From positions 1 to 47,603 of the forward strand of contig RBNJ01000045.1 of NCBI GenBank assembly GCA_003990765.1: a DNA stretch of 47,603 bases. The letters are read 5' to 3'. A program made the position numbers and the translations under genes. The notes under the pieces are model-generated. The model saw nothing but the letters and a program-made list of their open reading frames with translations. It had not been told where the DNA came from and did not search any database. This document shows positions 1,690-41,100 of this stretch, piece after piece (the first letter of the stretch is position 1; every line of letters begins with the position of its first letter). Source of the DNA: Jimgerdemannia flammicorona (taxonomy: Eukaryota).

Positions 1690-1900
1690 CTGAGGTAAAT
1701 TTGAGCTGATTCAATTTGGGTTCAAATCAACCTGAACTCATCATATAATGAATTCAAATTTGAACTGATTTGAATTCATTACAGGATGAATTTAGATTGA
1801 TTTAAATTCATCATGTGATAAATTTGAACTGGCTTGAATCAGTCATGTAGTTGACAAATTCAAATTAGATTCGAATTTCTCTAACTCAATTGGAGTACTA
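1690..1900. mobile_element. Right terminus (TIR plus subterminal GATTC/GAATT-type repeats) of a hAT-family element whose left end is not seen in the window
   Basis: Ends ...CTAACTCAATTGGAGTACTA at 1900; reverse complement TAGTACTCCAATTGAGTTAG matches the TIR TAGTGCTCCGAACGAGTCAA at 16937 and the ends of 31594-37971; preceded by the same kind of pentamer-rich subterminal array. Confidence 0.7.
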
Positions 1901-8259: not shown

Positions 8260-8828
8260 TATAACATGCCCAGCTCAATTAAGGTGAATTATAAGGTTGG
8301 GGGTTGGTGTAGTTTGGCTTAAGCCCCCAGTTACTTTGTCAAAAAGCAATAAAATGTTCTAAGATTTCTGAGATCCTTGGTATTTAGTGGTATAATAGTT
8401 AATCTGAATATAATAGTCATTCCACTGATCACATAGTGGTTGATTTGTGTATTGGTTTCCTTATTGGGTTAACTGGGAATTGGTAGAATTTCATATATGG
8501 CATGAGTAGTTTCCTTCTTAAGTGATAGGTGATTTCTGTATAGCATGATAATCTCCTTATATATGATGGTCTGGTAATTTAGCAGTTTCCTTTCTGAGTG
8601 ATGGGTGATCTCTGTGTAGTGCTCTCAAATAAATTGAATCAATTCAAATTGAGTTTGAATCAAATCAAATTCAAATTAAATTGAGGGTCTGATTCAAAAC
8701 CTATTTTTAGAAATTCCAAATTCAATGGTCCTTAGCTTGTTAGATTCCCCTATATAAGAGGAATCTAACTAGCTAAAGATCATTGAATTTGGATGTGTAT
8801 TTGTTGAGTTATTTAATTTCTAAAAATA
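8076..8828 (+). repeat. Left copy of a ~750-bp direct duplication (Copia piece + Gypsy LTR start 8260-8616 + MITE start 8617-8828)
   Basis: Colinear with 17942-18693 from ACTTTCCTATGTAGAT to ATTTCTAAAAATA; differences seen are mostly transitions. Confidence 0.95.
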
Positions 8829-11800: not shown

Positions 11801-13248
11801 GGCTAGGGGGCAAGGACCCCAGTGGGCCTTCATAGGCACACTGAGGCATCCAGAACAGCTATGGCAGTTCGGCATAGCAGAGGCTGAAGTTGCACTCACC
11901 ACCATCACCTTTCCCACAGCCCCTGCAGGCATGGCAGAATTGGGTCAGAGAGTGGGGACACTCTTTTTCGGTCATGTGGAACCAGCAGCAGCAGAAGCAA
12001 ACATGCATTTCACACCCAGAGTAATGATCTCAGGGCACTTCTTAAGCTCCTCAATCACGGCTTTGCAGGTGGTAGTGGAGATCCCATCTTGCAGGAAGGA
12101 GGACACAGGGACAGTCAGGCAGACTGTGGTGGCAGCAGCTTTAGCAGTGGCAGTGGCGGCAAGATGGCAAGATTGATGCATGACAATATCAAAACCATGG
12201 AGCAGAAACAAGGTCATCTTGGCTCGGTCAGTAGTAGTGAGGGTAGCAATATTCTTACCAGCCCCTTGTGAGACATCAGTAGAGACACCAAAAAAGTTAT
12301 AGGGCTCCATCGATGCTTGCATGGCTTTGTCAATTTTAGCATACTAGTTCTTAGCATACTGGGTGGCAGTGATATTAGTAGTCATAGCAGCCTCAACCAT
12401 GGCCATGGTGCAGCGCTTGGCTTCTGCTGAAGCAGTAGCAAGGGTGGCATCACACTGCTCCTCAAGAAGGAGGGCAATCATAGCAGCTACCTTCTTGGAA
12501 GGAGTAAACTTCCAGTTGGCAACTTGGGCCTTCAAAAAATTGGCACAGTGTTCCTTCGCAGCAACGACTTCAAGGACAGAAAGCACTCTGGTGCAAGCAG
12601 TATAGAAGTAAGCAGGGACCTCGGCAGATGCAGTGGTGACATAGGCTGCCAGATTGTCAAACTATACCAAACTTGCGAAGGAAGCAGGGGGGATGGCAGC
12701 ATCGCCATCTACATTCATATTGTCTGTCATGTTGTGTATTATAAAACAAGTAGAGAATAGAGGAATAGTTTAGAGCAAGATGTGATGCTGTTACAGCGGA
12801 TATGAAGATCAGTAGTAAAAGGTCAAATAGTGAACAGAAAAAGCTTTTTGTGAATTTTCATGATAGAATAAGGAAATGGAATAAAGTGTTTTCTGAAGCA
12901 AGGTGCAATAGATCTGCAACCTGCCCTCAGCACTACAGTATGTGGTGGTCTTTATTCAAAAAAGAGAACAAAGTTCAGGTAAACAAAGATATGGATCTAA
13001 CCCCAGAATTCCAGAATTGGACAGGTGCATAAGTACCCAGACCTTGTCCCGATCCAAACAAAGGTCTGAATTGGGCTTCATCAATCTACACACATGATGG
13101 GCCATTAAAAACCTGATATAGAAACAATTGGGAAAAGGTACCGGTCACGTGATCTAATGTTACACAAACAATAAACAATGCTAAAAACGGAACTAGACTA
13201 ATGACATATCATGTATTGTTATGTGATTATTACTTATAGGTTTAAAAA
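8829..13248 (-). mobile_element. Penelope-like retroelement copy A (ORF1 + RT, no endonuclease seen), poly(A) at left end, ~510-bp 5' pseudo-LTR
   Basis: RT motifs TNKNLGFAVI, KLPMFHALPKVYK..WCPII, TGIAMGTNCALDLANL, FCQYIDNLIIF, HYLDLEI, SNHP; T-tract ~8829-8844; 12737-13248 repeats the 3' end (~8845-9355); ORF1 ATG at 12730. Confidence 0.85.
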
Positions 13249-16200
13249 CATCATTTCCTTGTTCTATCATGAAAATTCACAAAAAGCTTTTTCTGTTCAC
13301 TGTTGACCTTTTACCGCCAATCTTCATATCTGCTGTAACAGCATCACATCTTGCTCTAAACTATTCCTCTATTCTCTACTCGTTTTATAATATACAACAT
13401 GACAGACAATATGAATATAGATGGCGATACTGCTGTCCCCCCTACTTCCTTCATCAGTTTGGCAGAGTTTGACAACCTGGCAGCCTATATCACCGCTGTG
13501 TCTACCGAGATCCCCACTTACTTCCATGCTACTTGCACTGGAGTGCTTTCTGCCCTTGAAGTCATCACCATGAAGGAACACCATGCTGATTTTTTAAAGG
13601 CCCAAGTTGCTGACTGGAAGTTTACTCCTTCCAAGAAGGTAGCTGCTATGATCGCCCTCCTTCCTGAGGAGCAGTATGATGCTGCCCTTGCTACTGCTTC
13701 AGCAGAAGCCAAGTGCCATGCCATGGCTATGGTTGAGGCTGCTATGACTACTAATGTTGCCACCGCCCAGTATGCTAAGGACCAGCATGCTAAAATTGAC
13801 AAAGCCATGCAAGTGTCAACAGAGGCCTATAACTTTTTTGGTATCTCTACTGATATCTCGCAAGGGGCTGGGAAGAATATTGCTACCCTCGCTGCCACCA
13901 ACTGAGCCAAGATGACCTTGTTTCTGCTCTATGGTTTTGACATTGTCATGTGTCAATCTCGCCATCTTGCCACTACCACCACTGCTAAAGCTGCTGCCAC
14001 CACAGTCTGTCTGACTGTCTCTGCATCCTCCTCTCTGCAAGATGGGATCTCTGCCGCTGCCCACAAAGCCATGGTTGAGGAGCTTGAGAAGCGCCCAGAG
14101 ATCATTACTCCGGGTGCAAAATGCACATTTGCTTCTGCTGCTGCCAGTTCCGCCCAACTGAAAAAGAGTGTCCCCACTCCCCGACCTGATTCCGCTGTGC
14201 CTATGGGGGCTGTGGAAAAGGCAAAGGTGGTGAGCGCGACTTCGGCCTCTGCTGCGCTGAACTGCCATAGCTGTTCTGGATGTCTCAGTGTACCTATAAA
14301 GGCCCACTGAGGTCCTTGTCCCCTAGCCCCTGCTGAGATAATGGGTTCTGTAAAAGGGATCAAGCGAGTACATAAGGCTTTGCCTTCCCCGTCTGTTTCT
14401 TCTGCTTCCACTAAGACCAGCCACTCATTGACTTCGAGCTGCTCATCTAAGAGCACCACCAGAGTGTTTGTGTCGCAGTGCAACAAGTGTACTGCCATCA
14501 AACATCATGTTGTCTGGCATAATGCCAGTGACATCTGAGTCCTCTAGCATTAAAAAACTAGAGGTCCCTGGCCCGGAAGTCTTATATGACTTCCCAGCAG
14601 CATGGTTTGGCCCTGATGTCCCCATTCCACATGGGGTAGTGGCCTCAACACCAATTGAGGATTTTGCCTTCATGTCTTCTCTTCCTGATTCTCACTTAAG
14701 TCAGTTTTTCGTCCCTCAGTTTCAGATGTTTACTGAGGAGGGCTTTGTTACCAATATACCTCCACCTTGGCTTACTTCCGAGCTCACATATATGCTGAAC
14801 TTTGGCCCTAAGTTTGTTCTCCCTGAGTCAGCTTTGATGAATAGTACTATTGATCTGATTTCATTGTTGTCATTCCAATGGCGCCTCAACCTTGCCACCT
14901 TCTGGACCTCTATGGGTAATCCTGATGACATTCTGGAGATCTCTGCCTGAGTGCCATCTAAATGGCGACCACTGCATTATATGGAAAATATGCAAATTAT
15001 GCTTCATATGAGTGCTGCATTAAATCAAGCCATCCAACCCATAATGAATGTGTCTGGCGCGCTTATACTGAAGAAGTTCTGTCACCTTCTCAAAGACATC
15101 TGCACTCATGATGACTTTACTGTCTGTCTTACTGACAAAAATCTGGGGTTCACCATAATTCTATGTGCTCTGTATTTAGACAGTCTTTAGTCCCTCCTTC
15201 ACAATCCTGTGTACATGAATGATTTCTCTATGATTGATAATGTTAAGGAATCAGTGAGGCTAGACCTGCTTGGTCTACTCGAGTTCTGTATCGGCAACCG
15301 GAGTTATATGCCGATTTGAGAATACCTCATAGAGCCCAATGATTGCAAGCTATCCATATTTCATGCTTTGCCCAAGGTACACAAAGGGGCTTACATAGCA
15401 TGGTGCCCTATCATTGGTATATTTAACTCTCCCATGACTGAGATTTTGCATTTCCTATCTCACTTTCTCTATCTGTAGTTGGCCCATCTGTGCCATAATA
15501 TGGGTTATTCGCATTATTTACCTCTATGTGATATGTTAGAACTATTACAATTGGTTCAATCAGATTACCTTGATATGTCAGATTGCAACTATGTCGCTAC
15601 TAGGAATTTTGCCACCTTCTACACTAGGATTACACTTGATGAGTGTATTGACTGTCTCACTTTTTTGTCAATGGTGGCCTTCCCCCCTAGCTCTTTGCCA
15701 TTCTCGGCCTTGTCCGCATAGTCATGACTCATACAATGTTCACATCTGCCATCGGTTCCTTCCACTCTATGACTGGTATTGCTATGGGTACTAATTGTGC
15801 TCTGGATCTTGCCAATCTGGTTGGCTTTGCTCATGAGTTATATACCTTACAAGCACCCAATCATCTGCTCAGCTGAGCCATCACTACTGGGCTAAAGTTC
15901 CACTGGTATATTGATGATCTTATCATCTTATGCCCATAATTATGGACTTGGCCTCAATATTTGGTGCCGTGTACCCTCTGCACCATCGTATCGAATGAGA
16001 AGTCTTGTCCGCCAGACCGTGCCATTACTTAGACCTGGAAATCTGAGTTACACCATTCTACACAAGCTGTTTTGCCAAGTTTCTGCATAGTACTCAGTTT
16101 GTCGACTGGTTGAGCAATCATCCTAGGAAGATGTTCCATCTATATATTGTGAATAAGGCCTGCTGCCTTTTGCTACTCTGCTCATCTTACCGTGATTGGC

Positions 16201-17942
16201 TTGATAAGTATCAGTCTTTAGCTGAGTTCCTGGTTTACAGAAAAGGATACTCTATTGATGTTGTTATCACTTAATTGAGTTTGATTGATTGGCTTGAGGT
16301 CCAAACTTCACTTCTCACCCCTCCCCTTATTCTCCACCCCCCCATTCCCCACTCTGCTTTTCCTCTCCCATTGCTTGTCATCCAATATGACATGGCCTGA
16401 TAGCTACATCAACAGTCTGACAAGACTCTACATACCGCTTTGCTTTGTTTTGGTTTCCCTGTGACTGCCCGACAACCAATCATCACCTGAAAGAATGGTT
16501 TTACCATTCTTAATGCCATCTCAAATACTAGCTTCACTCTAAGTCCTCTATGAAGGCCGCACCACTCGTACGTGCTGTGCAATGTTTAAAAACATGAAAA
16601 ATCACCAGACAACCTCCAGTGTGAGGCTCTAGGCCTGACACCTGTGTACCTATACTCCATGACACCTGTCTACCTCCACTCACTTTGCTTGCTCTGGTGC
16701 CAAGGCTCTACTCTACTCTAGTTGCAATGCTCTAGGCCTGATGCCTGCACCTTTAGGTGCCGACAATTTTTAGGTTTTTAAACCTATAAGTGACAATCAT
16801 GTGACAATACATGACACATCATTGGTCTAGTTCCATTTTTAGCATCGTTTATTGTTTGTGTAACATTAGATCATGTGACTGGTACCTTTTCCCGATTGTT
16901 TCTATATCGGGTTTTTAATGGCCTATCACATGTATATAGTGCTCCGAACGAGTCAATCTGGATGGGATTCGGATGGATTTGAATCGGATTTGAATCGGAT
17001 TCGAATCGGATTCGAATCGGATTCGAATCGGATTCGAATCAACCATTGTTTTGATTTCCAAATTAGACAATTAAATGTTTACATCAATAACTTGATGAAT
17101 AATCATCCAAATTTGATGATCTTGGTGTCATTTGAAAGCCCTTAATAAGGCCTTTCTAATGATACCAAGAATATTAAAATCGGATTACATGTTGCCAAGA
17201 TATTAAGGAAAACGTTCCATTTGACGAAATTTCCAAAATCGGCAAATCAAAGAATTTCCAAAATCGGCGATTCAGACATTTTCCTTCATAACTCAGCAAC
17301 GCATGATCCGAATTCAATGTTCTTGGTATCATTAGATAGGCCTTATTAAGGGCTTTCAAATGACACCAAGATCATCAAATTTGGATGTAAACATTTAGTT
17401 GTCTAATTTGGAAATCAAAACAATGGTTGATTCGAATCCAATTCGAATCCGATTCGAATCCAATTCGAATCCATCCGGATGGGATTCGAATCCCATCTGA
17501 GTTGATCCAGATGGGATTCAATCCGAATCAATCCGAATCCAATCCAGATTAAATTGACTCGTTAGGAGCACTATATGTGTAGATTGATAAAGCCTGATTC
17601 AGACCTTTGTTTGGATCAGGGCAAGGCCCAGGTACTTATGCACCTGTCTGATTCCAGAATTCCGGGGTTAGATCTGTGTCTTTGTTTATCGGAACTTTGT
17701 TCTCTTTTTTAAATAAAGACCGCCATGTACTGTGGTGCCAAGGGTGGGTTGCAGATCTATTGCACCTTACTTTGGAAAACACTTTATTCCATTTCCTTGT
17801 TCCATTATAAAAATTCACAAAAAGCTTTTTCTATTCACTGTTTGACCTTTTACCACCGATCTTCATATCCACCATAACAGTTTCACATTTCGCTCTAAAC
17901 TATTCCTCTATTTTCTACTCATTTTATAATAAAAAAAAAAAA
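13249..17942 (+). mobile_element. Penelope-like retroelement copy B (ORF1 13399-14538, RT ~14540-16590), ~140-bp 5' pseudo-LTR, poly(A) tail
   Basis: Inverted homologue of copy A; TDKNLG, GIAMGTNCALDLANL, WYIDDL (15904-15921); ~13252-13391 repeats ~17790-17930; A-tract 17931-17942. Confidence 0.85.
16937..17573. mobile_element. hAT-family foldback MITE (637 bp) inserted in the 3' UTR of PLE copy B
   Basis: TIRs TAGTGCTCCGAACGAGTCAAT / ATTGACTCGTTAGGAGCACTA; degenerate 8-bp TSD CATGTATA/TATGTGTA; empty site (TGTGTGTA once) in the homologous sequence at ~9195 and ~13090; GATTCGAATC subterminal arrays. Confidence 0.92.
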
Positions 17943-18693
17943 CTTTCCTATGTAGATATATACTGATATTGTTCTTAAGATAACATTATTGTCACCTAAT
18001 TTGATAGATACAGGGTGCTTGAACTTCTCATATATAGAGAACTACTCATGATATACTATTATATACTGTATTATATTGAAATCTATAAGTCAGACTTCTT
18101 CACTATATATATAAGTACTTGGTATTGTAACATGCCCAGCTCAATTAAGGTGAATTATAAGATTGGAGGTTGGTGTAGTTTGTCTTAAGCCCCCAGTTAC
18201 TTTGTCGAAAAGCAATAAAATGTTCTAAGATTTCTGAGGTCCTTGGTGTTTAGTGGTATAATAGTTAATCTGAATATAATAGTTATTCCACTGATCATAT
18301 AGTGGTTGATTTGTGTATTGGTTTCCTTATTGGGTCAACTGGGAATTGGTAGAATTTCATATGTGGTATGAGCAGTTTCCTTCTTAAGTAATAGGTGATT
18401 TCTGTATAGCATGATGATCTCCTTATATATGATGGTCTGATAATTTAGCAGTTTCCTTTCTGAGTGATGAGTGATCTCTGTATAGTGCTCTCAAATGAAT
18501 CAAATCAATTCAAATTGAGTTTGAATCGAATCAAATTCAAATTAAATTGAGGATCTGATTCAAAACCTATTTTTAGGAATTCCAAATTCAATGGTCCTTA
18601 GCTTGTTAGATTCCCCTATATAAGAGAAATCTAACTAGCTAAAGATCATTAAATTTGGATATGTATTTGTTGAGTTATTTAATTTCTAAAAAT
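17942..18693 (+). repeat. Right copy of the ~750-bp direct duplication
   Basis: Matches 8076-8828; only this copy continues into the rest of the MITE and LTR. Confidence 0.95.
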
Positions 18694-19728
18694 AGAGTTC
18701 GAATCAGACCTCAAATTGAATTGGGCCTCAATTCAATTCATTGGGAGCACTATCTCTATGTGATGATCTCTGTATAGCATAATGATCTCCAAAAGTATGC
18801 AATTTCTGGATAACTCAATTTGGTGTGGATTCTCCTCAATCAGGCTCATTGAGAACAAACTAATAACTTGGGTGGTGCATATTCTTCTTACTGGGAATGA
18901 TACTGATGGCAGATTCTTCTTACTGGGGAATGGATAACTCAGATATGGATAATTTAGATAACTCAGATAACTTGAATGTCATAGATTCTTTCTGAATCAG
19001 TGAGGTTCTCTAGGAATGCAGATAACTTCAAAAATGGTGGATTCAACTGGAAAATATAACTGGCAGCTTTGGGAAAGGGTCTTTTGGCAAAGTTGCATCA
19101 AAGACTGGCTTTGTTTATGCAAATGGATTTACTGTGAAGTTGTATCAGAAACTGGCTTAAGCAAGGTGGCTTTCTCTTAGGCAGCAGAAAGGCAGAAATC
19201 TTCAGGCTTATTTGGCAAGCAAACCAATAGTACAGCTTATTCCTTAAGTGGTGGGTTTCTCTTCAAAAGGCAGCAAAGTTCTCCTTGAACTTGATAGTAA
19301 ACTTTAAGCTTATCTGGCAAGTGAACCAAGGCTTTGTATTGGAAAGTAGACCAGAGTGGAAAGGGGACCAATGCTCAATCTTTATAGGCTTCTTTGGTAT
19401 TTGTATTTCAGACTGAGGTTTATTCACTCTTATCTCTAGGGTAATTTATACATTGTGGTTACTATCTGGTTGCTATATAGCTAACTATAGATTTACTACT
19501 TCTGGTAATATTTGGATGTATCCTCTGAGTACAGATGTGTCTACCAGATGTAGGTGTATCCTCTGGACACAAGTAAACAACCCTGGTGTAGTATCCTGTC
19601 TAATTATAGGTATGGCGGGCATGAGTAACTATGATATACTGAAAGTCACATCATGCTAGCTAAGTATGCTAATTGTTTGCATCATCTGGCTAAGCTATTA
19701 TTTGGGTGATACATTTTGGTTTATTATA
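18126..19728 (-). repeat. 3' LTR of the dUTPase Gypsy (contains a MITE)
   Basis: TGTAAC...TTATTATA, homologous to 27271-28481; adjacent purine-rich tract (minus strand TTTAGTGGGGGCTGA, 19729-19743). Confidence 0.92.
18483..18752. mobile_element. hAT-family MITE (270 bp)
   Basis: TIRs TAGTGCTCTC / GGGAGCACTA; degenerate 8-bp TSD TCTCTGTA/TCTCTATG; absent from the other LTR (single TCTCTGTA at ~27620). Confidence 0.92.
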
Positions 19729-22700
19729 TCAGCCCCCACTAAAGGATGGTCTGTCCTCAGACTATCCTTTAGTCATTATTTCAATATATATAAGCATTTT
19801 CTGCATCAATATCTGTTCCATTATCTTTGTTGTCTGTACTAGAGTCACTCTATTCTAAAGGCTCCTCTTCTTCTTCAGGAAATAAAATTTCAACTTGGTG
19901 GATAATACTGAGATAGGTGGGCTGGGTCATTCTTTAGAGATCATTCAGAGAGAACTGGGCCTGGACTAGAGCTGAATGGTTTCATTTGTAGATTGTATAT
20001 AATCTTTCTGCAGTAGTAGAATTCTTTCTGTTTAGGCCAGTAGTGTTGCAGACATAGACTAGGTCTGAGAGGAGAAGATTCTGCAATTGTTCTCCAATTG
20101 CATAGTATGCCTGCAGCTGGTGGACCTGGAGTAGTCTCTCAGCCAGGGTGAGGCTTTCTTAGTGAACTCAGATTTTCTGAAGATATATTCCATTCGGTTC
20201 TTGGAACTGTAGCAGGGGATCTGGTAGGGCTTAAAGAGAACTGAGGACAGGGATCTGGAGGCAGTTGTCAATTCTCTAGTTCATGGTATGGGGAAAGATA
20301 TATCTTGAGGCAGTTGGTGTATACTGATGTCCTCAGGGTTCATCCATCCATACTTCTTAAATAGATACTGGTTCCTCTGATATTGTGTACAAGATAGGGT
20401 CCTTCCCACTTGGGCTCCAGTTTGGCAGTAAAATTCATCTCAATCATGCTTTTCTAAACTAGTACTTGATCTCCAATCTTGATCTCCTGATCCTTCTGCT
20501 TCTGGTCATAGTACTTCTTTTGTCTTTCTTGGGCTTTGATAATCTGAACTCAGGCCTGATTATGTAAATATTCTGCCTTCTTGAGATTCTCATGGTCAGC
20601 AGTTCTCGTCTTTTTGGCAAATATCATTTCGAATGGCTTTTGTTTGGTAGAGGCAGCAGGGGTATTCTGAATTTCCCATAGGATCTCAGGTAAGCAGAGG
20701 TCCCAGTTGATAGGATTGACTCAGGTAAGTCCTTTCTTGATAGTCTGGTTCATTCTTTCTATCATACCATTGGTCTGGGGGTGGTATAATGTGGTCCATT
20801 TGAGGTGGATCTTGTGAACTTGTGCATAACTTGTGATTATGTTGTTGCTGAATTCTGAGCCTCAGTCAGAGATGAGTTCTTCTGGAGGTCCATATCTGAG
20901 TGCGAGTCCATAGAGAAGGCCTACAATAGATAAGGCATCTGCAATTTCCATTGGGAAAGTCTTGGGCCACTTGGTCAGATATTCTACAAATATAAGGATA
21001 TACTTGTTTCTTCTTGGTGTAACTGGTAGAGGTTCAATTACATCTACTCCCTATCTCTGAAAGATGTTGTCTGGTGGTGTGATTGGTTGCAATGGTGCTT
21101 GGTAGTTCTTCCTTCCTTAGTACTTCTGGCAGGTGTCACATTTCTTAAGTATATTCTGGACTTGTGTTCTGAGGTTGGACCAATGTTGGTATATTATTTG
21201 CAGCTTCTCTTCTATATTTGCCTGTCCTTGATAAGCTTTCTGATATTCTTTTTGAATGAGATCTTCTTGTACCTTGATGGTCTGGGGAGCTTCCTTTAGG
21301 GTATAGTTCCTCAGAACACCCTTCTTCTGGTTTATTGGAGTTGGCAGGAAAGTACATCAACATTGTTGTGAGCTTTCTCTGCCTTGTGGATGATTGTGAT
21401 TTTGTAATCCTGAAGGATAAGGATCAAGTAGGCCAGGATTCTAGTAGGTTCCTTATAGTTGAATAGCCATTTGAGGGCCAAATGATCAGTTATCAGAGTG
21501 AACCTTTTTCTGATAAGGTAGTGTTTGAACAGGGTAACCACCCATATGACTGCAAGGCATTCCAATTTGGTGCTGCCATAATTCATCTGCTGCTGATTGG
21601 TAGCTCAGCTTGTATAAGCTATCATACGGTGTTAATGATCAGGTCCTTCTTGGGCTAGAACTACTTCCAGGCCATCTTTGGAAGCATCTGTGTTCAAGAT
21701 GAATAGCTTCTGTAGATTTGGGTGGATGAGGATTGGTACTGTAGTCATGCCATTCTTGAGTTCCTTGAAGGCTTTTTCTTATGACTCTGTCCATTTATTA
21801 GATACTCCTTTCTTGAGAAAGATTTGAATTAGGGCAGCAATTTGGACAAAGTCCTTGATAAACCTTCTGTAGTAGGATACTAGCATCAGGAATGATAGTG
21901 TTTCCTTCAGAGTCTTGGGAACTGGCCAATTATTAATCTTTATTTTCTTTGAGTCTGCATGGATTCCTTCTTTTGAAACTATAAATCTAAGGAATTCAAG
22001 TTTCTGTTTCCCAAAGTAGCATTTCTTAGTATTGAGTCTCAGGTGGTTCTTGTAGGTGAGCTTGAAGAATTCTTCTAGGTAGTGCAGACATTCTTTGAAA
22101 TTTGCTGAATAGATGTTAGAATCATCTATATATACAATCAGACAGTAGTAGATCAGGGGGATATAGACTGAATTCATCATCCTCTGGAAGGTGGGGGGTG
22201 TATTGCAAATTCCAAAGGGCATTTGGAGATATTCAAACAGTTTTCCTAAGCAAGGAAGGCTGTCTTTTGAATGGATCTCATGGAATCCTGCGAAAAGGTC
22301 CATACTGCTGAAGTATCTGACATCTTGTTACTGGTCCAAAAGGTCATCGATTCTTGGCAAAGGATAGGCATCCTTTTCAGTGACTGAATTGAGCTTCCTG
22401 TAATCTATACAGAGTCTCCATCCTCCTTTCTTTGGTACAATAAGTATAGGGCTGGCCCAAGGGCTGGCCCAAGGGCTGGTTGAGGGTTGGATGACTCTAT
22501 TGTCAAAGAGTTCTTGTATGTGCTCCTTTTCGAATATCTTTAGATGATGGGGTATTCTACAGGATTTCTGCCAGATGAGTGTTGCATTTCCTGTATTTAT
22601 ACTGTGGTGATATAATGAATTATATAGCAGATTGCCATAGTCTGTGGTGAAGATATCTTGATTTTTTTGAGGAGTTCTACTAGTTGTTGCCATTGCTGAG

Positions 22701-29788: not shown

Positions 29789-31968
29789 GTTTATATAATA
29801 GAGTTAAGTAGCGACATCTGTTATTGGCTGAAAGTCAGGAGGTATGATGTAGTGCTTCTTCAGAATATTTGAGCCTATGGTGGGTGGGATTATGAGAAGT
29901 AGAGCAAGGAATGGTATGGTGGTGTGGGTTGGAATGGGCAGATGGGCATATTAGTTGGTGTGGAAAGAGATGAGCTAGTAGAGGTAGAAGTTTATGGTGA
30001 TTAATTGATATGGGGTAAATTGAAAGAAGGAGCTGAAGATGAGCTGGTTGTAGGCTCTATTTACCTTCTAGCAGTTGGCAGAGAGCAAAAGTAATGGGTG
30101 GAGGGCTGGCTGACTTGGGAAGATTAGGAGGAAGTTGGGTTAAATATTCTGGAGGAGAACTTTAATATAGTATATGATGAGAGTAATATGGGGTTAGTTG
30201 ATGGTATATGACAGTATTAGGGGGAAAAGCCAAGGCCCTTTACTCAGTAGCATTCTGTTGGCGAGAGTCTGGTAGAGATAAGAATCAATTGGATTCTGGT
30301 GACTGAATGCTAGAGTAATGTGCTGGACATTACTGAGATGACTGGAGAGTGGAGATGTGTGGCAGATTTCAGGCAGTCAGTGGTAGTAGGGGCCACTGGT
30401 GACTTAATGTGGCTCTCCTCAGAAGGCAGGCAGAGTGGGAATAATTTGTGATAATTGTAAGACAGGAAGTGATGCTGTGGAAGAATGATGGGCAGCTAAT
30501 AGAGCAGTGGTGGAGTAAATTTAAACACTTGACAGATACCTATTGGTGTGATGTTGGGGAGATAGCAGGAAAGGAGCAGAAAGATAAGGAGAGGAGAGTC
30601 AAGCAAGAACTATAATAGCAGTTGAGGTTGATGGAAGGGAGGAATCTATCAGGGGAGGCATACTCCTGATTAGCTACAGAGGTAGTTGAGTTGCAGCTGG
30701 ATTTACAGGCAGCTAAGGATAGTATGATAGATGGTCTACTGGTAAGGCTACAGGCTAGGCAGCTGGAAGAAGGGGAGCAGTCTACTAAATATTTATTGAG
30801 TATTTTGAAGACCAGGAGGGTGTGATACAGCTGGGTCTCAGTATTGCGAAAGGATGATATTGAGATCACCAAAATTGCTGAAATACTGAGAGAGGTCTCA
30901 GGGCAATAGCAGACTCTCTGGCAGAATGAAGGGGGGCTTGTAGAGGGTGAGGTACTACAGGAGGTTAATGACAATTTGGTAGACAGTTGGCCTATGGTAG
31001 TGCTATCTGAGATAGGTAGAGTGGTGAAGGATATAGTGTCCCTTGAAGAGATATTAGATGTGCTGAGGAAAGGGCAGGCAGGTTTATTGCCTGGGGAGGA
31101 TGGGCTGTCTTGGGAATTCTAGAAGAAGTTCTGGGTTGAGTTTGGTAGCTGGTTGATAGAAATGGTGAATTTTGTATTAAAGGAAGGTAGCTGGATTAGT
31201 AATGGTTCTTTAGGGTTAGTCTCTCTGCTATATAAGGAGAAGAGGAATTGGTATATATGGTAGAATTGGTGACCTATCATATTAATAAATATGGATAGAA
31301 AGTTGGTTTCTAAGATTCTGACTGAGAGAATGCAGCTGTAGATTGGCAGACTAGTGGGTGAGGACTAGCAGGGCTTTGTCAAGGAGAGGCAGATTAGAGA
31401 CAGTACTGTCTGGATACAGAATGTCTTGGAAAGTAGCAAGTGGATGGGTGGATGGTCTTCTTAAATCAAGAGAAGATATATGATAGAGTATAGTGGAATT
31501 ATTTAGAAGTAGTACTGCAGAAGGCAGGGTTCAGTATGATGAAGCAAGGAGATTGATGGGTTTGGTACAAGACTGCCAAGTAGCTATGCTGATTAGTGCT
31601 CTGAATAGATGGAGTTGATCCAGATGAGATTTAATTCAGATTCATCATGTGATGGATTTGAATCAACTCAGATAGTCTCATGATCTGATCTGGATTGATC
31701 TGGATTAATCTGGATTAATCCATCCAGATTGATCCATCTGGATTGATCCATCCAAATTGCTCTGTCCAGATTGATCCATCTGGATTGATCCATCTGGATT
31801 GATCTCCTGCCACACTTTGGTGACATCACCCTTTCTTTTATTCCCTCTTCTTTTGTTCTTTCTTTGTTTTCTTTCTTTGTTCTTTTTCTTTCCTGCCACA
31901 TTATGAGCAAACAAAACAACAGTCCTTAATTGTATGTTGGTCCAGTCTACTCATTTTTTTACCCTGCA

Positions 31969-33992
31969 ATGATTATCAAAAGAGGGAGTATTTGAGATAG
32001 AAATACACTCTCTGCTGACAATGTTAGATTCTTTCTCATATGGACAGTACACCAGCTGCTCATCAAGAGCCAAAGGGACAATGGCAGTGGTGATGGTGGT
32101 GGTGATGGTAGTGGTAATGGTGGGGGTAATGGTGGGGGTGATGGCAGAGATAAGGGAGAATTCCAGCAACAACTCACAGTAGCCCTTCAGACCTCGGAAT
32201 TCACAGACCTCACAGCTATGTATATGGCAGCCTTTTTAGAGCAGCCAACAGTAGATGTAGATTGCTCATTCTGCCACTACTTGTGTTTTACTTTTTTTAA
32301 TTTCCCCCAGCATGATCCAATTTACCTCATGCTTTTTCTTAGGGTCCACAGCTCTATGGTGAGATCTGCTGACTTTATTCACAACATCTGGTCAAGATGA
32401 AGAAAGGCTGACAGACATTGCAGGGCATGTCTTTGGTGGCTGAGCTGTTGAGTTAATATATCATATAGTGGAGGACTCAAAAGGAATAGAAGCAAGCCTT
32501 CTTGAGTAATCTTGTACAACTCATGCAACTTGTGTAACTTGTCAGTATACAACTCATTGGCATACAACTCACTTACTCACTCACTCACTCATACTCTTTT
32601 TCTGAAATACCCAGATCCATGTTTTATTTAACTTCATTTTTTACATGATCTCCTCCTAAAAAACACCCACACCTACATATAACCCATCCATACACAACCT
32701 GCCTACATACAACCCATCCACACACAACCCATCCACATGCAACCTATCTGTATACTTATCTTGGCCCCTTAGATCAGGGCTCAGTTCCATTAGAAAGGAG
32801 AGTTCAAAGTTACCAGAGTTGAACCATATCTGGTGTCTGATCAAATAGAGAAATTTGAGGGCAAGATATTCAGCATGAGCAGTACTAGCATCATCATCAA
32901 GGCTTGTGGGTCTATATTTGAATCAGAGCCAATCATTCTCGACTAAGGGGTCCATTGGCCAGCAGGAGTAACTAATGACAAAGAGAACTATATCATTATT
33001 ATCGAATGTGGAGAGGTGGTTGCAATAGTGGTAACGAACCTCTATGGTAACAAGCTTTGCTACCATATCAATGAGGTTTGCAAGGATTGCATCAAATACT
33101 AGATAGCAGGAAAGAGGGGGTAAAAAATGCAAGAAGGGGGGGTTTGGATGAGAATTGGGTATACTGCAACACTGGCATAGGGTGGGTTCCAGAGTTCCAA
33201 AATCCCCTGCACTTGTCTCTCTTTTTTTTACTCCCCAGAGAATCACACTCTTCGTCAACATACTCTTTTTGATATAATTCTAGGAATGCACAAGATTCTG
33301 TACCTCTACTGGAACTTTAGAAGTGCCATTGAAGAGCAAACTGTATGCAAGCATGACACAGCCTGTGTGGCAATGGCACCTATGATCTGGGGTTCTTTGA
33401 GCAGATTGGTAGAACATATGACAGGCCAGCTTAGTGGTGATCTCGGCACAGCTATACATATATTCTTAGTGCAATTTAGCATACTGTATAAGGTGAGGAG
33501 CTCTGCTTTTTTCAGGTACTATAGCCTGGGGGTTTCTGCCCCCCCACATGCAAAAAGGACTGACCAGATGCTATCTGTCTGGCAGGTTTCCAACTGGGGC
33601 TGGACCAAGGGCAGGTATCCACCAGTATAGCCTGACAGTACAAGGTCCTGGACCAAGGGTTCACCCAACCATATGCTCATGTCACATCAGGATATATTGG
33701 GCACAATGTTTCTCTGCCCACATATACAGACAACAATGTCACCCTGGTAATGTTCTACATCCTGGAAAGGAAGGGCCCAATCTGGAAGGATAGTGGTGGA
33801 GTCTGATATGACCTCACCTATAGTTTCAGAGTTCCATTTGCAGCCAACATGGCCATCCTATTCCAACCACATGACCACCATGGTACTATCACCTTCAAGA
33901 AGGGCTCAGACACAACAGTCATCATACTCACAACAGATGACAGGCTCATCAAGGCCTAGGACCAGCAGGTGGAGCAGTTTTGTAAGAGTTAG
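31969..33992 (+). pseudogene. Multi-exon cargo pseudogene; C-terminal exon resembles a TET/JBP-type 2OG-Fe(II) dioxygenase
   Basis: Last exon from 33586 (after intron 33493-33585: GTGAGG...CTGAC...CAG) reads GYIGHNVSLPT[Y]TDNNVTLVMFYILERKGPIWKDSGGV*YDLTYSFRVPFAANMAILFQPHDHHGTITFKKGSDTTVIILTT; Y codon TAT (33723-33725) is one C>T from His, giving HxD...GG...H; start and upstream exon limits approximate. Confidence 0.55.
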
Positions 33993-34060
33993 GCAGTCTT
34001 TTGTGAGGGTTAGGCAATCTTTCATAAGGGTTAGGCAATCTTTCATGAGGGTTCAGTAAT
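33979..34060. repeat. 21-bp tandem repeat, about 4 copies
   Basis: TTTGTGAGGGTTAGGCAATCT-like units. Confidence 0.85.
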
Positions 34061-34250
34061 CATTTTGTGTGGGTTGGGCTGGCAGCTGGGTGCCTCTTCT
34101 ATAGCACTAGTTTAGCCATTATGCTGGGCCCTACCGGCCCCTTGGCCCTGCTCTTGTAGTACTGCTGGTGCAGTGCTGCAGTGTAGGGCCAGGGTGCCCA
34201 TGGGACCTGAACCAGTGATGAGGCCTGAATCTGTGGTGGACTTCGACTGC

Positions 34251-34390
34251 TAGAAGTACCCTCTGATCACCAGAAGCACCCTCTGATTACTAGAAACATC
34301 CTTCAATCACCAGAAGTACCCTCTAATTGCCAGAAGCACCCTCCAACTACCAGAAGTACCCTCTAACCACCAGAAGTAGCCTCTGACCTG
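34251..34390. repeat. 20-bp tandem repeat, 7 copies
   Basis: CAGAAGCACCCTCTGATTAC-like units with exact 20-nt period. Confidence 0.92.
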
Positions 34391-34399
34391 GACTCAGAC

Positions 34400-34865
34400 T
34401 CCTTGGCAGCTTGGGGCTGCCCCTATGCTGCTAACAGAGGGCTACAAATTTTGTACACTCCCTCCACCTACCCTGCTCATCCTGGACACTTGTGGCTTAG
34501 AGCTGCCCCTTGCTGCCAGTGGAGGGCCACAAATTTTGTATGCTCCCTCTGCTGACTCTGTACCCACTGACCCTGCCAACTGACCATGCCCACTGATCCA
34601 GGCACTGACAGCTTGGGGCTACCCCTTGCTGCTGATGAAGGGCTGCAAATTTTGCATGCTCCCTCCACCTATCTCCTCCATCCCAGACACTCGCAGCTTG
34701 GGGCTGCCCCTTACTGCTGGTGGAAGGCCACTAATTTTGCATGCTCCCTCCACTGACCCTGTGCCCATCAGCCTGGACACTGACAGCTTAGGGCTGTCTC
34801 TTGCTGCTGGCAGAGGGCTGCAAATTTTGTGCACTCTCTCTGCCACTGCCAACCCTGCCAACCAC
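34400..34865. repeat. Five ~85-115-bp repeat units
   Basis: Core CAGCTTGGGGCTGCCCCTTGCTGCTG..GAGGGCTGCAAATTTTG..GCTCCCTCCAC recurs at ~34407, 34494, 34610, 34694, 34784. Confidence 0.88.
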
Positions 34866-34991
34866 TGCTCCAATTGGACTACAAACTCTGGGCCAAGTCC
34901 TCAGGTTTTTTTTCCTTTTTATTTTTGAAAGATATTAAATATTCCACATAGCCAACCAACTCATCCCCGAACCCCCAGGACCCACCAAATT

Positions 34992-37588
34992 TTAGCAGCC
35001 CAAGCTCCACCAAGACTTCAGACATATATACACCTGGATTATCTCAGCATTCAGTACACACCTCTTTGGGGCAATGAGGTCCACTCTATCTGAGAACACC
35101 TGCTTGATGGGAGCACTAGAGGTAGGAATCACCAAGTAGTTCTGAGCCATACCACACAGGCTGGGGAAGTCTGTTTGATGCAGCTATATGCCCCAGTGGA
35201 TAAGAATAGTGGTTAGATTGGTGGGTTAATTTGGCCCAATGCCTGTCTGACAACCCACCTTCCACAAGTTGAGTACCTCCGCATCCTTCAGCAGAATCAT
35301 ACAGTCACTGGTGAGGTAAATAGTAAGTTCATCTATTGACAGCAGCTCTTCCACTGATGGCTCCCTCTTCCTCTTTCTACTGAAGTAAATGTGGGACAGG
35401 AGGGATCTCTTGGCATATTTATCCAGACTTTGGCCAGAACCTTACAGTGGTGCATAGTTTTTCCAGTACACTTCAATTACAGTCTACTTGGTTCTCTTAA
35501 TGAAGTGCTACTCCCAGCCCTGATCTTTATGGTATTGAAGCTTTAAGCATAGGTCCAGCACTATTCAGAGAAAAGAGAGTGAGTTTTTGGGGGGGTTTCT
35601 CTATTTTGGAAGGAGCAATGGCCACACACTGATATACCTATACTGATTGAGTATATAGTGGTATCTGTTTTGGAGTAGTATTTTCTGAGCTTGCTTAGAG
35701 CAACCTCTACAGCATCTCTCTGATCCAGACTTAACCACAAATCACTGCAACCCTCTAGCCTATCCTTGAGCTTGTCCTCTAGCCAGTCAATCAGAAGGTT
35801 ATATACTGATATTGTAGAGCTTATTGTTGGGGTTGTTTGTTTGACTATATCCTTCATACAATTGTTGAAACACTGGCAGTTATATGTGGTGAGGTATTGC
35901 ATTATGTAGAGGTAGACAAAATGAGTATAGAGTCAGAGCAATTACCACTTACTTCCAAAACTCTGACAACATTCCTAAGTACATCTCACTTACTTTCACC
36001 TGAAGCCTTGCCCCATATTTCCTTGTTGGCAGCCACCATTGAATCTATTGGCTTTTTTTGTTTTTTTTTTTTTAAAAAAATAAATTCTTCAATTATCTGA
36101 AATAAGCTGCTTCAGCTGACTGAAGAAAAAAAGAATGCATACTACAGAAAACTCCAGCACATGCTGGATCATTGCAAATGTTGAGTTCCAATGTATACAG
36201 ACATCCAATATAAACTCTTTCAGAGCTAAACTGATTGCCCTACACTGTGTAGCAAATTTGTCTCATTGTTGTAGAGATGATTGGACTGACACAATCAGTT
36301 TGTGCAGCTTGGAAATTATACTCAGGGCCCCTCCTCTCTCAGATGTTTTGTCTATGTATGTAAGATAGTCCTGAACAGCAAGGTTCAGTATGTGGGCCTG
36401 ATATCATACATAGCAGCTTTCTGCACTGAAGGCCATGTTTTCCTGTTTGAGGCTGACCACTAAAACTTAGAAAAATGTTGAGTTGTTTGTGGCATTGTCC
36501 ATTGTAATGGCCAAAATCTGTACTTGAAATATTTGGTCAGCAAATTTATTGGAAAATAAATAACCAATAAAATCTGTTGTTTTAGGACCTCCCTCAAAAT
36601 GCTGATCTGATGGCAAGTCTTTCTTTTTTACCTTGATTGTGATCCCAAGCTCCCAGATATAACTAATAAAAGTATCTGTGATGTTGTCTCCAGAATGAGG
36701 GCCAGCAAGTTTGACAAAGTCAAGGGTGAGAGATTTAATCTGCCAATTGAGATCAATCCAATGACTGATAATGCCCAGAAATGAAATTGCATTGGGGGAT
36801 ATCCATGTGTCGATTGTAAATGAAATTTTGCCTGCTGAATTCTGCTTATTGAATGTAAGGTTACATTGGTGAGCTCTTTATAAAAATATATATATAATTC
36901 AGCTTGTAAAGATCATGATATTGCTCTTATTTTTTTTATCTAAAGTATCTGGTAGAGATTATCATACTCCTTCCTATAGACCTCCAGGACATCTTTGCAA
37001 ATAGTATCAGCACTTGACAAATATAAATCATACTTAAGGAGGCCAAAGATACTATGCAATTGATCACTCTTGATGGTTGTAAATAGCTGGTCTGTATATA
37101 CAATCTAGCAAATGAGCTGATTTCAAAATTCTGCTGAAGAGTATGGTTAAATATTTTTGATTAAATGGGGTTGTTGGTACAGAAATGGTCAGGCAATTGG
37201 ATAAAAATACCCACCACAGCTTGGATGTCGATTTTATTTATCTCTGTGTTCTTTTTGATTTTGTCAGAGTGCTTGTCTTTTATGTATTAATACCTGTTCA
37301 AAGTCATACTACTAAGTATTTTGAACTTCTGGCTAGTACAGTTTATGGGAGTAGATGAAATAGTATCATGTGTGTATCAAACAAAAGTGTCAGTTATATC
37401 AATAGGTATATCTTAATTTTTTACCTGTAATAATTACAAACAACATCATCTCCTATCTTAGTACAATGTTGCCAGATTTCAGAGTGAGGATTGCATAGAA
37501 GGTGTGGAACTATCAGGGATGTTTGACTTGAAGCATCATTGATACTGTGAACTGTTGAAGACTGATCTGTTGACATGAATGTTTGCAT
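34992..37588 (-). pseudogene. hAT transposase, intron-containing (BED finger, catalytic core, dimerisation domain)
   Basis: SEIWQHC...VVCNY (BED); GKISFTIDTWISPNAISFLGIISHWID..LDFVKLAGPHSGDNI; ILAITMDNATNN; AHILNLAVQD; WNSTFAMI; DFPSLCGMAQNYLVIPTSSAPIKQVFS..CLKSWW; stop at 34992-34994. Confidence 0.95.
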
Positions 37589-38103
37589 ATTTACATGTGC
37601 ATGTATATGTTTACATGTGTGTATATTGTATATGTAGATGTATCCAGCATATGAGTCATGTGGAGAATTCTGATTGGAGGATTTGGTTGAAGAATTCAGA
37701 TAAGGATTCAGATTGAAGGATTTGAATTAGAAGATTTGAATTGGAGGATTCAAATTGAGTGATTCAGATTGAGTGATTTGGATTGAGTAATTTGGATTGA
37801 GTGATTTAGATTGGAGCAATTCAGATGGGTGATTCAGATGGGGTGATTCAGATGGAGTAATTTGGATTAATCCAAGTTGATTCAGATGGCTTCAGATTTG
37901 AGATTTGGATCAAACTATCATATAACAAATCAAATCTGGATTTGATTTGAATTGACTTGTTCAGAGTACTAATGCTGATAAATGTGTAGAGAAGCTGAGT
38001 TTACCTTGAGAAGAGGTGTGCTATAGAGTGACCCTCTTTCCCCCCTACTTTATATTCTCTCTTTGGAGTCTTTGTTGGCTTAGCTGAAGGGGCAGCTATT
38101 TGG

Positions 38104-41100
38104 ATTTTTTTTTTTTTTTTATAGTTACTTGGACTTCTTCCTTTATTAATACATCTGTCTATTCTCTATATAATACACAGTGCCCACCCCTATCTGATCC
38201 CCCTAGTGGATCTTCTTCTCCCTCCTCCCCCCCCCCCTTCTTGATGAAAGACCACTTTGTCAGACTCTGTTCATATATCCTTTCTACCAGATAGCAACAT
38301 TACCCCCCTGGGGACCCCAACCAACCCACCACCCAGTCAGCAAATCACCCACCAACCCCTCCCACCTTAATAACTTCTCCTGTATATCTATCTAGCATCT
38401 CTTCTCAAAAACAAAGAGCCAATGTCCAGCCAACCCTACCCACACTACCAAAATCTATCCTATAGTAAGCTACCTATTATCTATACCACCTACTAACTGA
38501 GATTTCAAATCCTCCCAGTGACCTCTCTCTTCATCTGGCCTCCTCCCCACATCCAGCCAGTTCCCTACTGCTATCCAAAAGTCCCCCAGAACCTCACACT
38601 CTCCCAACCAATGTTCTGGTATCTGCACAAATCCCCCAACTTACTCTACATTATAACACTCCTCACAATCTAATTAGCCACCATCCACCAGATGCCCAGC
38701 ACAGAAATTCAACATGATATTCCTCTGTAGCATCTGCCACCATACCACTCAGAACTTGGGAAAAAGCCACCCCTGCACCTCAGCACTCCATGATCAGACT
38801 CCTGCCCAGTCCCATTCCTTGTCAATCCTCACTGCCTGTCAACTGCTTGACCAAAGATTCTGGCCAAGTTCCTACTGATACTCTACTCTATCACCAATAT
38901 TGAACTCAGTAAGTAGAACACTCTCTAGAAGCAGTCTGTCCCAATGCCACATAGCCAGACCCTACAACATCTCCCCCTCATTGTCTTGCCAGCACAAGTC
39001 TATTTAGTGTGCTCCATCCACTACCCTCCACCAGAAGCCCTTATACCATAGCTGTTAGCTACCATCTAGACCTACCAGAGAGAGTAAATCTCCCAAGGAC
39101 CCCTATGGGAAGAATCTATCCCACACCTTCTGCATCAGTGGCACCCAACCCCTCCCCTGTAAATCAACAGCCCTTTTCAGCCACCAAGCCTGTAAGCAGT
39201 ATAGTCTCTTAGGAAGGTCCACTAGACCTAGCTCTCTCTGAACCACTGGTGTCACCAGAGTGTCCCAGCTGATCTGAGACTACCTTTCTGCCCAAATCCA
39301 GTCTCTAGCTAGTTTCATCAGTCTCTTCACTACCTAAGCTGGAAAGTCCAAATGATATACAACATACCACAGCTTAGGGAACCAGTAGACATTCAGGATT
39401 GAAACCTGGCCCACTAGAGAGATATAGTGCCCTCCTTAGCCTTGAAGAGCCTCTTCCCAAATGGCCACTCTCCTTTTCCACCACACCCATGGTAAGACAG
39501 AACTATATACAGAGAGAAAGATGTCCAAGTATCTCACCATCTCTCTGACAGAGATAATTGTTCCAATGATGTCCCTCCTCACTAATCCATTCTCCAGCAC
39601 CATCATCTCACACTTATGCCAGTTTAGTTTCACTCCAGAATATGCCTCATACCATTCAACTATCTTCTTAAGTATCTCAACATCTGCTACTGAGCCAAGT
39701 CCAACTACCATATTATCAGCAAAGGCCCCCACCTTCTATACCACAATATATATAGTAAGCCCTGCCACCTTCTATCATATTCTATCCATCAAAGATTCCA
39801 ACAAAAGAGCATAGAGGATAGGAGACAGTGGATCTTCCTGAGGAACTCTTCTTTCCAAGGGGAATGCCAGACCCCAGTGACCATTACACATTAGTACAGT
39901 CCTACTGCTCTCCAATAGATTCAATATAGAAACTCGAAATTGTGAGGGAACACCAATTATATCCAGTACCTTGCCCAGTCACACCCTTTGGACATAGTCA
40001 TAGGCCTTCTTCTGGTCTAGAAAAACCAATCTTCCATCTAATTTACAAGCCCATACTCTCTCAATAATGCCATGAACCCAGGCTGTCCCATCTCTGATGA
40101 GCTGACCTCTAACAAAGCCCCACTGCTCCTCACCCAGTACCTGTTGGGCAACTTTCTGTAGCCTTGCAACAATCACCTTGGTCACCATCTTCCTGTCTAT
40201 ATCCAGAAGCATGATCAGCCTCCAGTTCTTCCAGTCCTCCCTCCTCCTCTTGTCTTTGTACAATAAGGCCACCAACCCCAAGTCCTGCTCCCCAATCCAC
40301 TTACCATTCAGAAGAATATGATTACAGAGAGCTGCCATCTCTCCAGGAACCTTCACCATCTTCTTCCAAAAGTCCCAAGGTAACCCATTCTTTCCTGGTA
40401 CCATCCCAAGCTTAGTTGCTGCAATGACTCTCTGAATCTCCTTCTTTTAGACTAGAAGGATTGAGTCACCCAGGTCCTCCACTCATGGTAGTTTTTAATT
40501 CTCCAGCATATTTCCAATTTCCTTCTCATCCTCACCCTCTTCTTTCTCACTCCACAGACCCCTCTATCTCTCCTTTAGTATTCTCAAGATCTGTTGCATA
40601 CTATGCACCATTTTCCCCTCTACATCTAGGACCCCATTCCATCAATGCCACACTCTCCTGGCCTAGAGGAGCTGTAACAAGTACTTAGTAGGCCTCTCTC
40701 CCTCCTCAAGTCTCTGCTATCTCAGCCTAGCTGCCATTCCTTTCATATGTATCTCCTCCTCTTCTCTCAATACTTGTTGCAGCTCCATTATCTCCAATTT
40801 TACCCATACCAACCTCCAATCCTCTACCTCACCAGAATTCAACAAATCTGCCTATTCTATCTGCAGTCTAACCAACTGATTAGAAGCACACCTCACTCTT
40901 TTCCTTCTCCACTTCTTGGCCTCCTTACCAGCCCCTCCCCAGTAAACCTATACAGCCTCTTTCAAATTTAACCATCAGACACCCACTGGTAGACCTTTAT
41001 ATATCCAGCCAGCAATCTTTACTTGGATGTCCTCTACTCATAGATCCCACAAAACCTTCTTAGCTAGTAGAGAGGAGTTAAGATACCAATGTCCAAGTCT

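Follow-up and report, generated by a model that had tools for sequence, protein, structure and literature searches.

A decayed hAT transposon of Jimgerdemannia flammicorona and its convergent gene for a putative TET/JBP-like dioxygenase

What a transposon would gain from a second gene lying opposite its own transposase, and resembling enzymes that oxidise methylated bases in DNA, is the question raised by a locus of Jimgerdemannia flammicorona. The locus lies on contig RBNJ01000045.1 of assembly GCA_003990765.1, in a stretch of 47,603 nucleotides (positions 1 to 47,603 of the forward strand) that was analysed at its full length and is referred to here as the window. Direct reading of the sequence places a hAT element at 31594-37971, with terminal inverted repeats (TIRs), a target-site duplication (TSD), subterminal repeats and two convergent genes, one for a transposase and one for a candidate dioxygenase, the passenger.

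The best explanation of the locus, which is given a probability of roughly 0.7, is a dead Ac-like hAT together with a convergent Fe(II) dioxygenase gene of TET/JBP lineage whose active copies oxidise methyl groups. The element would once have been autonomous, with an 8-bp TSD and TAGTRCTC termini, and would have carried the transposase on its minus strand and a three- or four-exon dioxygenase gene in convergent orientation on its plus strand. In active copies the enzyme would oxidise a methylated DNA base, most likely 5-methylcytosine (5mC), to judge from the family assignment and the literature. Removal or alteration of the methyl marks on the element would counter silencing and keep the element transcribed, and the same activity would protect it from methylation-linked C>T decay; this eraser or anti-silencing role of the passenger is what we infer from the analysis that follows. 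In the window copy the host process appears to have won, with the decay reaching the iron ligands of the enzyme itself.

The transposon and its second gene

The element is a member of the hAT superfamily by its 8-bp TSD, by its short TIRs and subterminal repeats, and by the C-terminal dimerisation domain PF05699 of its transposase. The left TIR (31594-31605, plus strand) reads TAGTGCTCTGAA and belongs to a terminus family common to three other hAT ends or miniature inverted-repeat transposable elements (MITEs) of the window; the right TIR (37960-37971, minus strand), read directly from the sequence, is TAGTACTCTGAA in reverse complement, and the two match at 11 of 12 positions, the sole mismatch being a G/A transition. 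The TSD ATGCTGAT is found at both flanks (31586-31593 and 37972-37979, the latter likewise read directly) and is identical in 8/8 positions, for which the chance at fixed positions is 4^-8. Inside both ends lie 14-bp subterminal repeats in mutually inverted orientation, the left set comprising 10/14/28-bp repeats of the ATCTGGATTGATCC type (31688-31804), presumed to be transposase-binding sites, and the right set 14/28/70-bp repeats (37667-37869).

The transposase remnant occupies 34992-37575 on the minus strand. Its dimerisation domain (34992-35183) matches PF05699 with an E value of 1e-8 and 35.3-35.4 bits, above the Pfam cut-off of 21.4, and lies in a different frame from the catalytic core (~36089-36877), which holds three in-frame stops. 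The read-through of the transposase contains FTIDTW, TMDNATNN, QAHILNL and HWNST, recognised by eye from hAT signatures, which we take to be hAT core blocks; the core has no Pfam match, and a PDB sequence search with it gave chance matches alone (E 0.75 or worse). The original prediction of a hAT with TIRs, a perfect TSD and a minus-strand transposase is borne out by these features. The two convergent genes are separated by an internal tandem-repeat block of 21-bp, 20/60-bp and 85-bp units (33978-34829). A 134-codon open frame with a Gly/Asp-rich low-complexity run is also present on the plus strand (31996-32400), after the left subterminal repeats and ahead of the dioxygenase gene; its sole Pfam match, to TrAA12, is sub-threshold (18.8 bits where the cut-off is 30.9), and it may be an upstream exon or a chance frame.

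Mapping of related proteins onto the window by tblastn delimits the passenger as a spliced plus-strand gene at ~32773-33992 with eight in-frame stops and a Tyr at the first iron ligand. The first located exon (32773-33181) is preceded by AG, is homologous to residues ~28-166 of the full-length relative P0005 (374 amino acids) and has in-frame stops at 32791, 32944, 33100, 33121 and 33178; a short N-terminal exon upstream of it was not located in the window. The intron that follows (33182-33283) is of the GT...AG type, with its GT donor at 33182, and matches in position an intron of the metagenome locus L001, described below. The middle exon (33284-33492), identified by tblastn and direct reading, is stop-free. 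The last exon (33586-33992), also placed by tblastn, encodes the catalytic core; its start is given approximately, since the acceptor is off phase by one base. Here the first iron ligand is Tyr (33723-33725), whereas the Asp (33729-33731) and the distal His (33879-33881) are intact, and stops are found at 33633, 33804 and 33957, each at a Trp codon of the closest relative, P0003. The TGA at 33804 corresponds to Trp in the two closest relatives, P0003 and P0004, and to Phe in P0005, P0006 and P0008.

The relatives were sought with an exhaustive HMMER search of the 107-residue last-exon piece against 1.84 billion representatives, which gave five matches at E<=1e-3. Four of these, P0003, P0004, P0005 and P0006, are relatives of the passenger, and P0003 is the closest, with 77% identity and an E value of 1.5e-51. 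The fifth, P0007 (E 1.3e-4 over four stretches), is an unrelated repeat protein; the match was judged spurious, and it was excluded from all alignments. P0008 was added by one of three word-indexed homologue searches, which returned two, two and one matches, mostly the query itself, this method being weak for the dioxygenase family. A pattern search of metagenome loci gave 23 matches, of which L001 and L002 were confirmed; the gene of L001 is intact, and its introns coincide in position with those of the window gene. All the relatives are unnamed or 'hypothetical' and come from metagenome-type sources, namely ENA, JGI and Logan assemblies.

The invariant columns of the five-member alignment include H283, R298, G300, G307, H335 and G336, and the intact relatives retain the pattern HxD...HG[ST]. 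Both His of the iron triad are invariant in this alignment, and the Asp is present in four of the five members and in L001, with Asn in its place in P0006; an Arg seven residues before the HxD motif is present in 4/5 lineages. The passenger is thus a member of a real gene family, and its window copy is dead. Much of what had been read from the letters alone survives this comparison: the quoted last-exon peptide is exact, the upstream 'GEVVAIVV' is in frame and homologous to the relatives, and the supposed reversion of Tyr to His at 33723 agrees with the His found there in P0003, P0004, P0005, P0006, P0008 and L001. The proposed N-x5-HxD motif is retained only in its HxD part, which is conserved in the family, most relatives having Cys at the position of the Asn. 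The reading 'RRGG...GIGW' was taken from the wrong frame; the homologous frame gives IAGKRG, a stop and then KMQEGGVWMRIGYT.

As to the loci themselves, L001 (1-3666) and L002 (1-2870) are AT-rich, with 34% GC and a CpG observed/expected ratio (O/E) of 1.2, and are not CpG-depleted. L002 holds a nearly intact family gene with two stops, upstream of which is a tandemly repeated, CpG-rich leader, and L001 holds further open reading frames (ORFs) at 2320-3253 that have no Pfam match.

Decay of the gene and its place in the element

The window is strongly CpG-depleted, with a CpG O/E of 0.13, and the last exon of the passenger allows the direction of change to be followed. Against P0003, 96 of 131 codons of this third exon are identical and 35 residues differ; 22 of the differences are one C>T or G>A step away and six require the reverse step, while three can be reached by transversion only and four have no single-step route. 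All three stops of the exon are Trp>stop changes, the first iron ligand has been altered by C>T, and eight of the 22 forward changes lie in a CpG context in the sequence as it now stands. The window copy was inactivated mainly through C>T and G>A changes, and the cytosine loss that had been noticed across the window is confirmed by its CpG O/E and by the excess of forward over reverse single-step changes.

At 154-1453 on the plus strand the dioxygenase family is represented by a second pseudogene, which is more decayed and AT-rich, has many stops and is closest to P0005, at 43% identity. Tyr has replaced the first iron-binding His in each of the two window pseudogenes, and in the copy at 154-1453 the distal iron-binding His is Tyr as well (Tyr sites at 1195-1203 and 1346-1354). 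Each of these replacements is an independent C>T change in the CAY codon of a catalytic residue.

The second copy also bears on whether the gene belongs to the transposon. A second hAT right end (1690-1900, minus strand) has the same terminus family and subterminal repeats and ends in ...GGAGTACTA, the left part of its element lying beyond the start of the window; its end at 1900 is ~450 bp downstream of the second pseudogene. The metagenome locus L001 stops 1.7 kb past its intact gene, in repeats of the GATTTGA type and a terminus alignable with the hAT ends of the window. The hAT-linked dioxygenase copies represent diverged lineages, with 30-47% identity. A nested insertion inside the hAT was considered and rejected, given that no TIR/TSD pair was found to bracket the gene and that the gene recurs beside hAT ends elsewhere. 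Since the second copy and L001 both adjoin hAT ends, and no internal TIR/TSD pair brackets the gene, the dioxygenase gene appears from its sequence context to be a genuine hAT passenger. This agrees with the original placement of the gene within the hAT rather than in a separate insertion, in that it has no TSD or TIR of its own and a homologue lies beside a hAT end on L001.

It is very improbable that the gene lies in the hAT without functionally belonging to it, having arrived as a captured fragment of a host gene (transduplication) or as an independent nested insertion between the TIRs. Such an origin would suit the fact that one complete element alone is in view and that the MITEs at 16937-17573 and 18483-18752 do not have the gene. 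It fits poorly, however, with a family copy less than 450 bp from the second hAT end (154-1900) and another less than 1.7 kb from the end of L001, with the existence of intact, intron-conserving copies that keep the catalytic residues, and with the lack of any TIR/TSD pair bracketing the gene inside the element.

The non-autonomous relatives, which hold neither gene, measure 637 bp (16937-17573) and 270 bp (18483-18752), and a further left end lies at 8617. The MITE termini are TAGTGCTC, and the 8-bp TSDs match in 6/8 positions, both differences being transitions. The 637-bp MITE still keeps several CpGs. Two of the MITE left ends, at 8617 and 18483, have the same flank, gtgatctctgt, and nearly the same sequence (8605-8680 and 18471-18545); the MITE thus lies within a repeat that occurs two times at a distance of 9.9 kb, and this duplication could be an LTR (long terminal repeat) pair or a segmental one.

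The rest of the window is full of retroelement remains. Reverse-transcriptase (RVT_1) matches on the minus strand at 21779-22327 (E 4e-14) and 39979-40446 (E 2e-8) show that such remains flank the hAT to left and right. At 11612-12343 and 13816-14504 there are long ORFs in opposite orientation whose proteins are near-identical, such as those of 11625-12176 (plus strand) and 13953-14504 (minus strand); they indicate an inverted duplication of some repeat, which has no Pfam match.

Kinship of the dioxygenase and its probable chemistry

The TET/JBP family was represented by nine phage proteins, namely gp2 of Mycobacterium phage Cooper, which is named as a TET/JBP reference in the Figure 7 legend of Kojima 2025 (PMC12730594), and eight diverse phage relatives; Cooper gp2 itself matches Pfam Tet_JBP with an E value of 4e-6, below the gathering score. 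Alignment of the passenger family with this reference by hhalign gave a score of 35.3 (P 5.2e-4) over 68 columns, and in a second run 106 columns were aligned with a score of 33.6 (P 5e-4). The catalytic positions fall in register, with HxD on HxD, R298 on R187, GG on G193, P on P198 and HG[ST] on H221-G222-T224. The reversed passenger family scores 15.3 against the same reference; 83 column shuffles have a mean of 14.8 and a maximum of 23.5, 83 shuffles in eight-column blocks have a mean of 16.0 and a maximum of 23.9, and none of the 166 reaches 35.3. Against eight phage oxygenases of the PF13640 family the passenger family scores 17.8 (P 0.12), which is noise, with the match lying off the catalytic motif, whereas the phage TET/JBP proteins score 29.1 (P 0.0021) against these oxygenases. 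Because the TET/JBP score is obtained with the triad in register while the PF13640 control is noise, the passenger is kin, at the level of profiles, to the TET/JBP lineage specifically and not merely to 2-oxoglutarate (2OG) oxygenases at large; no kinship to anything else was detected.

Placement in the ESM Atlas points in the same direction. The 30 nearest named clusters of P0008 (recognition 2505) comprise eight of PF20515, 'Tet-like 2OG-Fe(II) oxygenase', and 22 of PF12851, Tet_JBP. P0005 adjoins a basidiomycete cluster in which 15% of members have PF20515 (score 0.96, 211/256 features), with a recognition of 2137, under the mark of 2300. Such placements are leads by the tool's own description.

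Several results weigh against this kinship. The specificity control consists of one 2OG-oxygenase family alone, the prolyl-hydroxylase-like PF13640, and the hhalign probability is just 31%, from a shallow profile with an effective number of sequences (Neff) of 1.7. No Pfam family was matched by the two window fragments at E<=10, by P0003-P0006 at E<=1 or by the five alignment members at E<=10; PDB sequence searches gave zero matches both with P0005 and with the family profile; and PHROGs yielded noise alone for the passenger family. As to the predicted double-stranded beta-helix fold, AlphaFold2 models reached a mean pLDDT (predicted local distance difference test) of 34.1 with a five-row alignment and 36.3 with a 14-row alignment, unusable values that reflect too little depth. 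The position aligned to the phage residue R236, finally, is H, N or T across the passenger family, in a low-confidence part of the alignment. A tblastn search of phages with P0005 returned ten records, all noise at E>=7.

The gene could instead be a generic or unrelated 2OG-oxygenase-like gene, or a non-enzymatic one, in which HxD...H on beta strands gives a superficial resemblance to TET/JBP proteins. The negative Pfam, PDB and PHROGs searches, the hhalign probability, the ESM Atlas placements being leads only, with P0005 under the recognition mark, and the low-confidence AlphaFold models would all suit this alternative, which is nonetheless distinctly improbable, as seven phage core residues (H, D, R, G, P, H and G) stand in register at a score 8 standard deviations above the shuffles. 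The PF13640 control likewise speaks against it, being noise for the passenger family but 29.1 for the phage TET proteins, as do the nearest named ESM clusters, 30/30 of which are Tet-like or Tet_JBP and none of another oxygenase family. The designation of the passenger as a TET/JBP-like dioxygenase is supported by its profile kinship and its HxD...H in register, but no Pfam Tet_JBP match was found for it.

The kinship leaves the reaction to be considered. In enzymes of this lineage the arginine of the last strand that binds 2OG belongs to an Rx5-aromatic motif. In the phage set R236 is invariant and lies at the start of that same last strand; in the passenger family an Arg follows four to five residues past the R236-aligned position in 4/5 lineages only. 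The original caveat that the 2OG-binding Arg is not evident in the last strand thus extends to the whole family. In TET2 and NgTET1 the C5 carboxylate of 2OG is held by Arg1896 and Arg289, respectively, and an Asp/Asn three residues after HxD contacts the N4 of cytosine in TET2, NgTET1 and CMD1, as described in PMC7854593. The equivalent of this Asp/Asn in the passenger family lies one residue earlier than HxD+3.

An enzyme of TET/JBP lineage with a chemistry other than 5mC oxidation, whether a thymine hydroxylase in the manner of JBP and the phage enzymes, an oxidase of N6-methyladenine (6mA) as with CcTET, or a CMD1-like enzyme with a co-substrate other than 2OG, is an unlikely but conceivable alternative. 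It draws on the last-strand position being H, N or T, on the shifted Asp/Asn contact to cytosine N4, and on the matched reference being phage enzymes, some of which are annotated as thymidine hydroxylase. CMD1 is described as unable to use 2OG, with no basic residue placed for its C5 carboxylate (PMC7854593), and Kojima, in the account given of the PU and PE types of transposon-borne TET/JBP proteins, cannot exclude another activity for them (PMC12730594). The missing arginine may, however, be ordinary, given that H, D/E and H alone are common to all the transposon-borne types according to the Figure 7 legend of that paper, and R298, or the Arg seven residues before HxD that is found in 4/5 lineages, could take over its role.

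Comparison with known TET/JBP systems

Fungal TET/JBP genes were reportedly associated with Kyakuja-Dileera-Zisupton (KDZ) and Plavaka transposons by Iyer et al. in 2014. These basidiomycete systems resemble the window element in having TET/JBP genes that are carried along by DNA transposons, and differ from it in that their transposase superfamily is not hAT.

A closer parallel is found in rust fungi. Kojima 2025 (Biology 14:1741, PMC12730594), published in December 2025, describes TET/JBP genes in seven transposon lineages, among them hATs, with twenty TET+ families spread over six Puccinia species, all with a 7-bp TSD and named 'hAT7'; a paper on stripe rust mentions the Pfam domain in passing. 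The earlier statement that no hAT linkage was established is consequently out of date: the hAT-TET linkage is already in print, and the window element is a further example of it, not the first. Like the window element, Puccinia hAT7 is a fungal hAT with a TET/JBP-type gene beside the transposase, in a genome with C>T hypermutated repeats, and the role proposed for the gene is the same, an escape from methylation-based silencing (PMC12730594). The two differ in the TSD, which is 7 bp in hAT7 but 8 bp in the window element and its MITE relatives, and in gene order, as TET precedes the transposase in the hAT7 families described and both are read in one direction, whereas the genes of the window element are convergent.

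The passenger family also departs from the better-characterised enzymes. The AG-type enzymes of the same paper are close to CcTET and keep the Gly331 and Asp337 positions, which the passenger family does not. The phage TET/JBP proteins (Cooper gp2 and relatives, PF12851) share with the passenger a catalytic core of HxD, R, GG, P and HG[ST] in register, at ~25% identity over 68-106 columns, although the N-terminal halves are not credibly alignable; the phage proteins keep the arginine R236 in a YRIS motif, which the passenger family is without, and their context is the hypermodification of phage DNA. The TET homologue CMD1 of Chlamydomonas also has HxD...H, and the arginine that normally serves the 2OG C5 carboxylate does not act in it (PMC7854593). 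It is a host gene, whereas the passenger is transposon-borne; for the PU and PE types, CMD1 is named as one of the nearest solved structures (PMC12730594).

A further reading, clearly on the unlikely side, is that the passenger represents a TET/JBP-like clade that is unannotated and deeply divergent, has no 2OG arginine, perhaps works with another co-substrate or makes another base modification, and rides on canonical hATs with 8-bp TSDs. It would suit the fact that every relative found is unnamed or 'hypothetical' and of metagenome-type origin. A different co-substrate or modification would be possible because the canonical 2OG-binding arginine has been lost, as with CMD1, and the passenger family is found on hATs in at least two very different genomes, with a CpG O/E of 0.13 in the window and 1.2 in L001. 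Were it true, TET+ transposons could reach further than the three fungal lineages from which they have been reported.

A transposon-borne enzyme resembling a demethylase would act as a counter-defence against methylation-based genome defence, and the window provides a clean anatomical example of such a system, in which the ends are complete, the two genes are present and another linked copy is at hand. The outcome of decay is on view too, both iron-binding histidines having been hit by the very C>T decay that the enzyme would supposedly prevent. The value of the example is incremental, as the hAT-TET pairing was published in December 2025. Beside the Puccinia families, the window element adds a canonical hAT lineage with an 8-bp TSD and a dioxygenase clade that is invisible to Pfam, whose missing 2OG arginine could point to a different chemistry.

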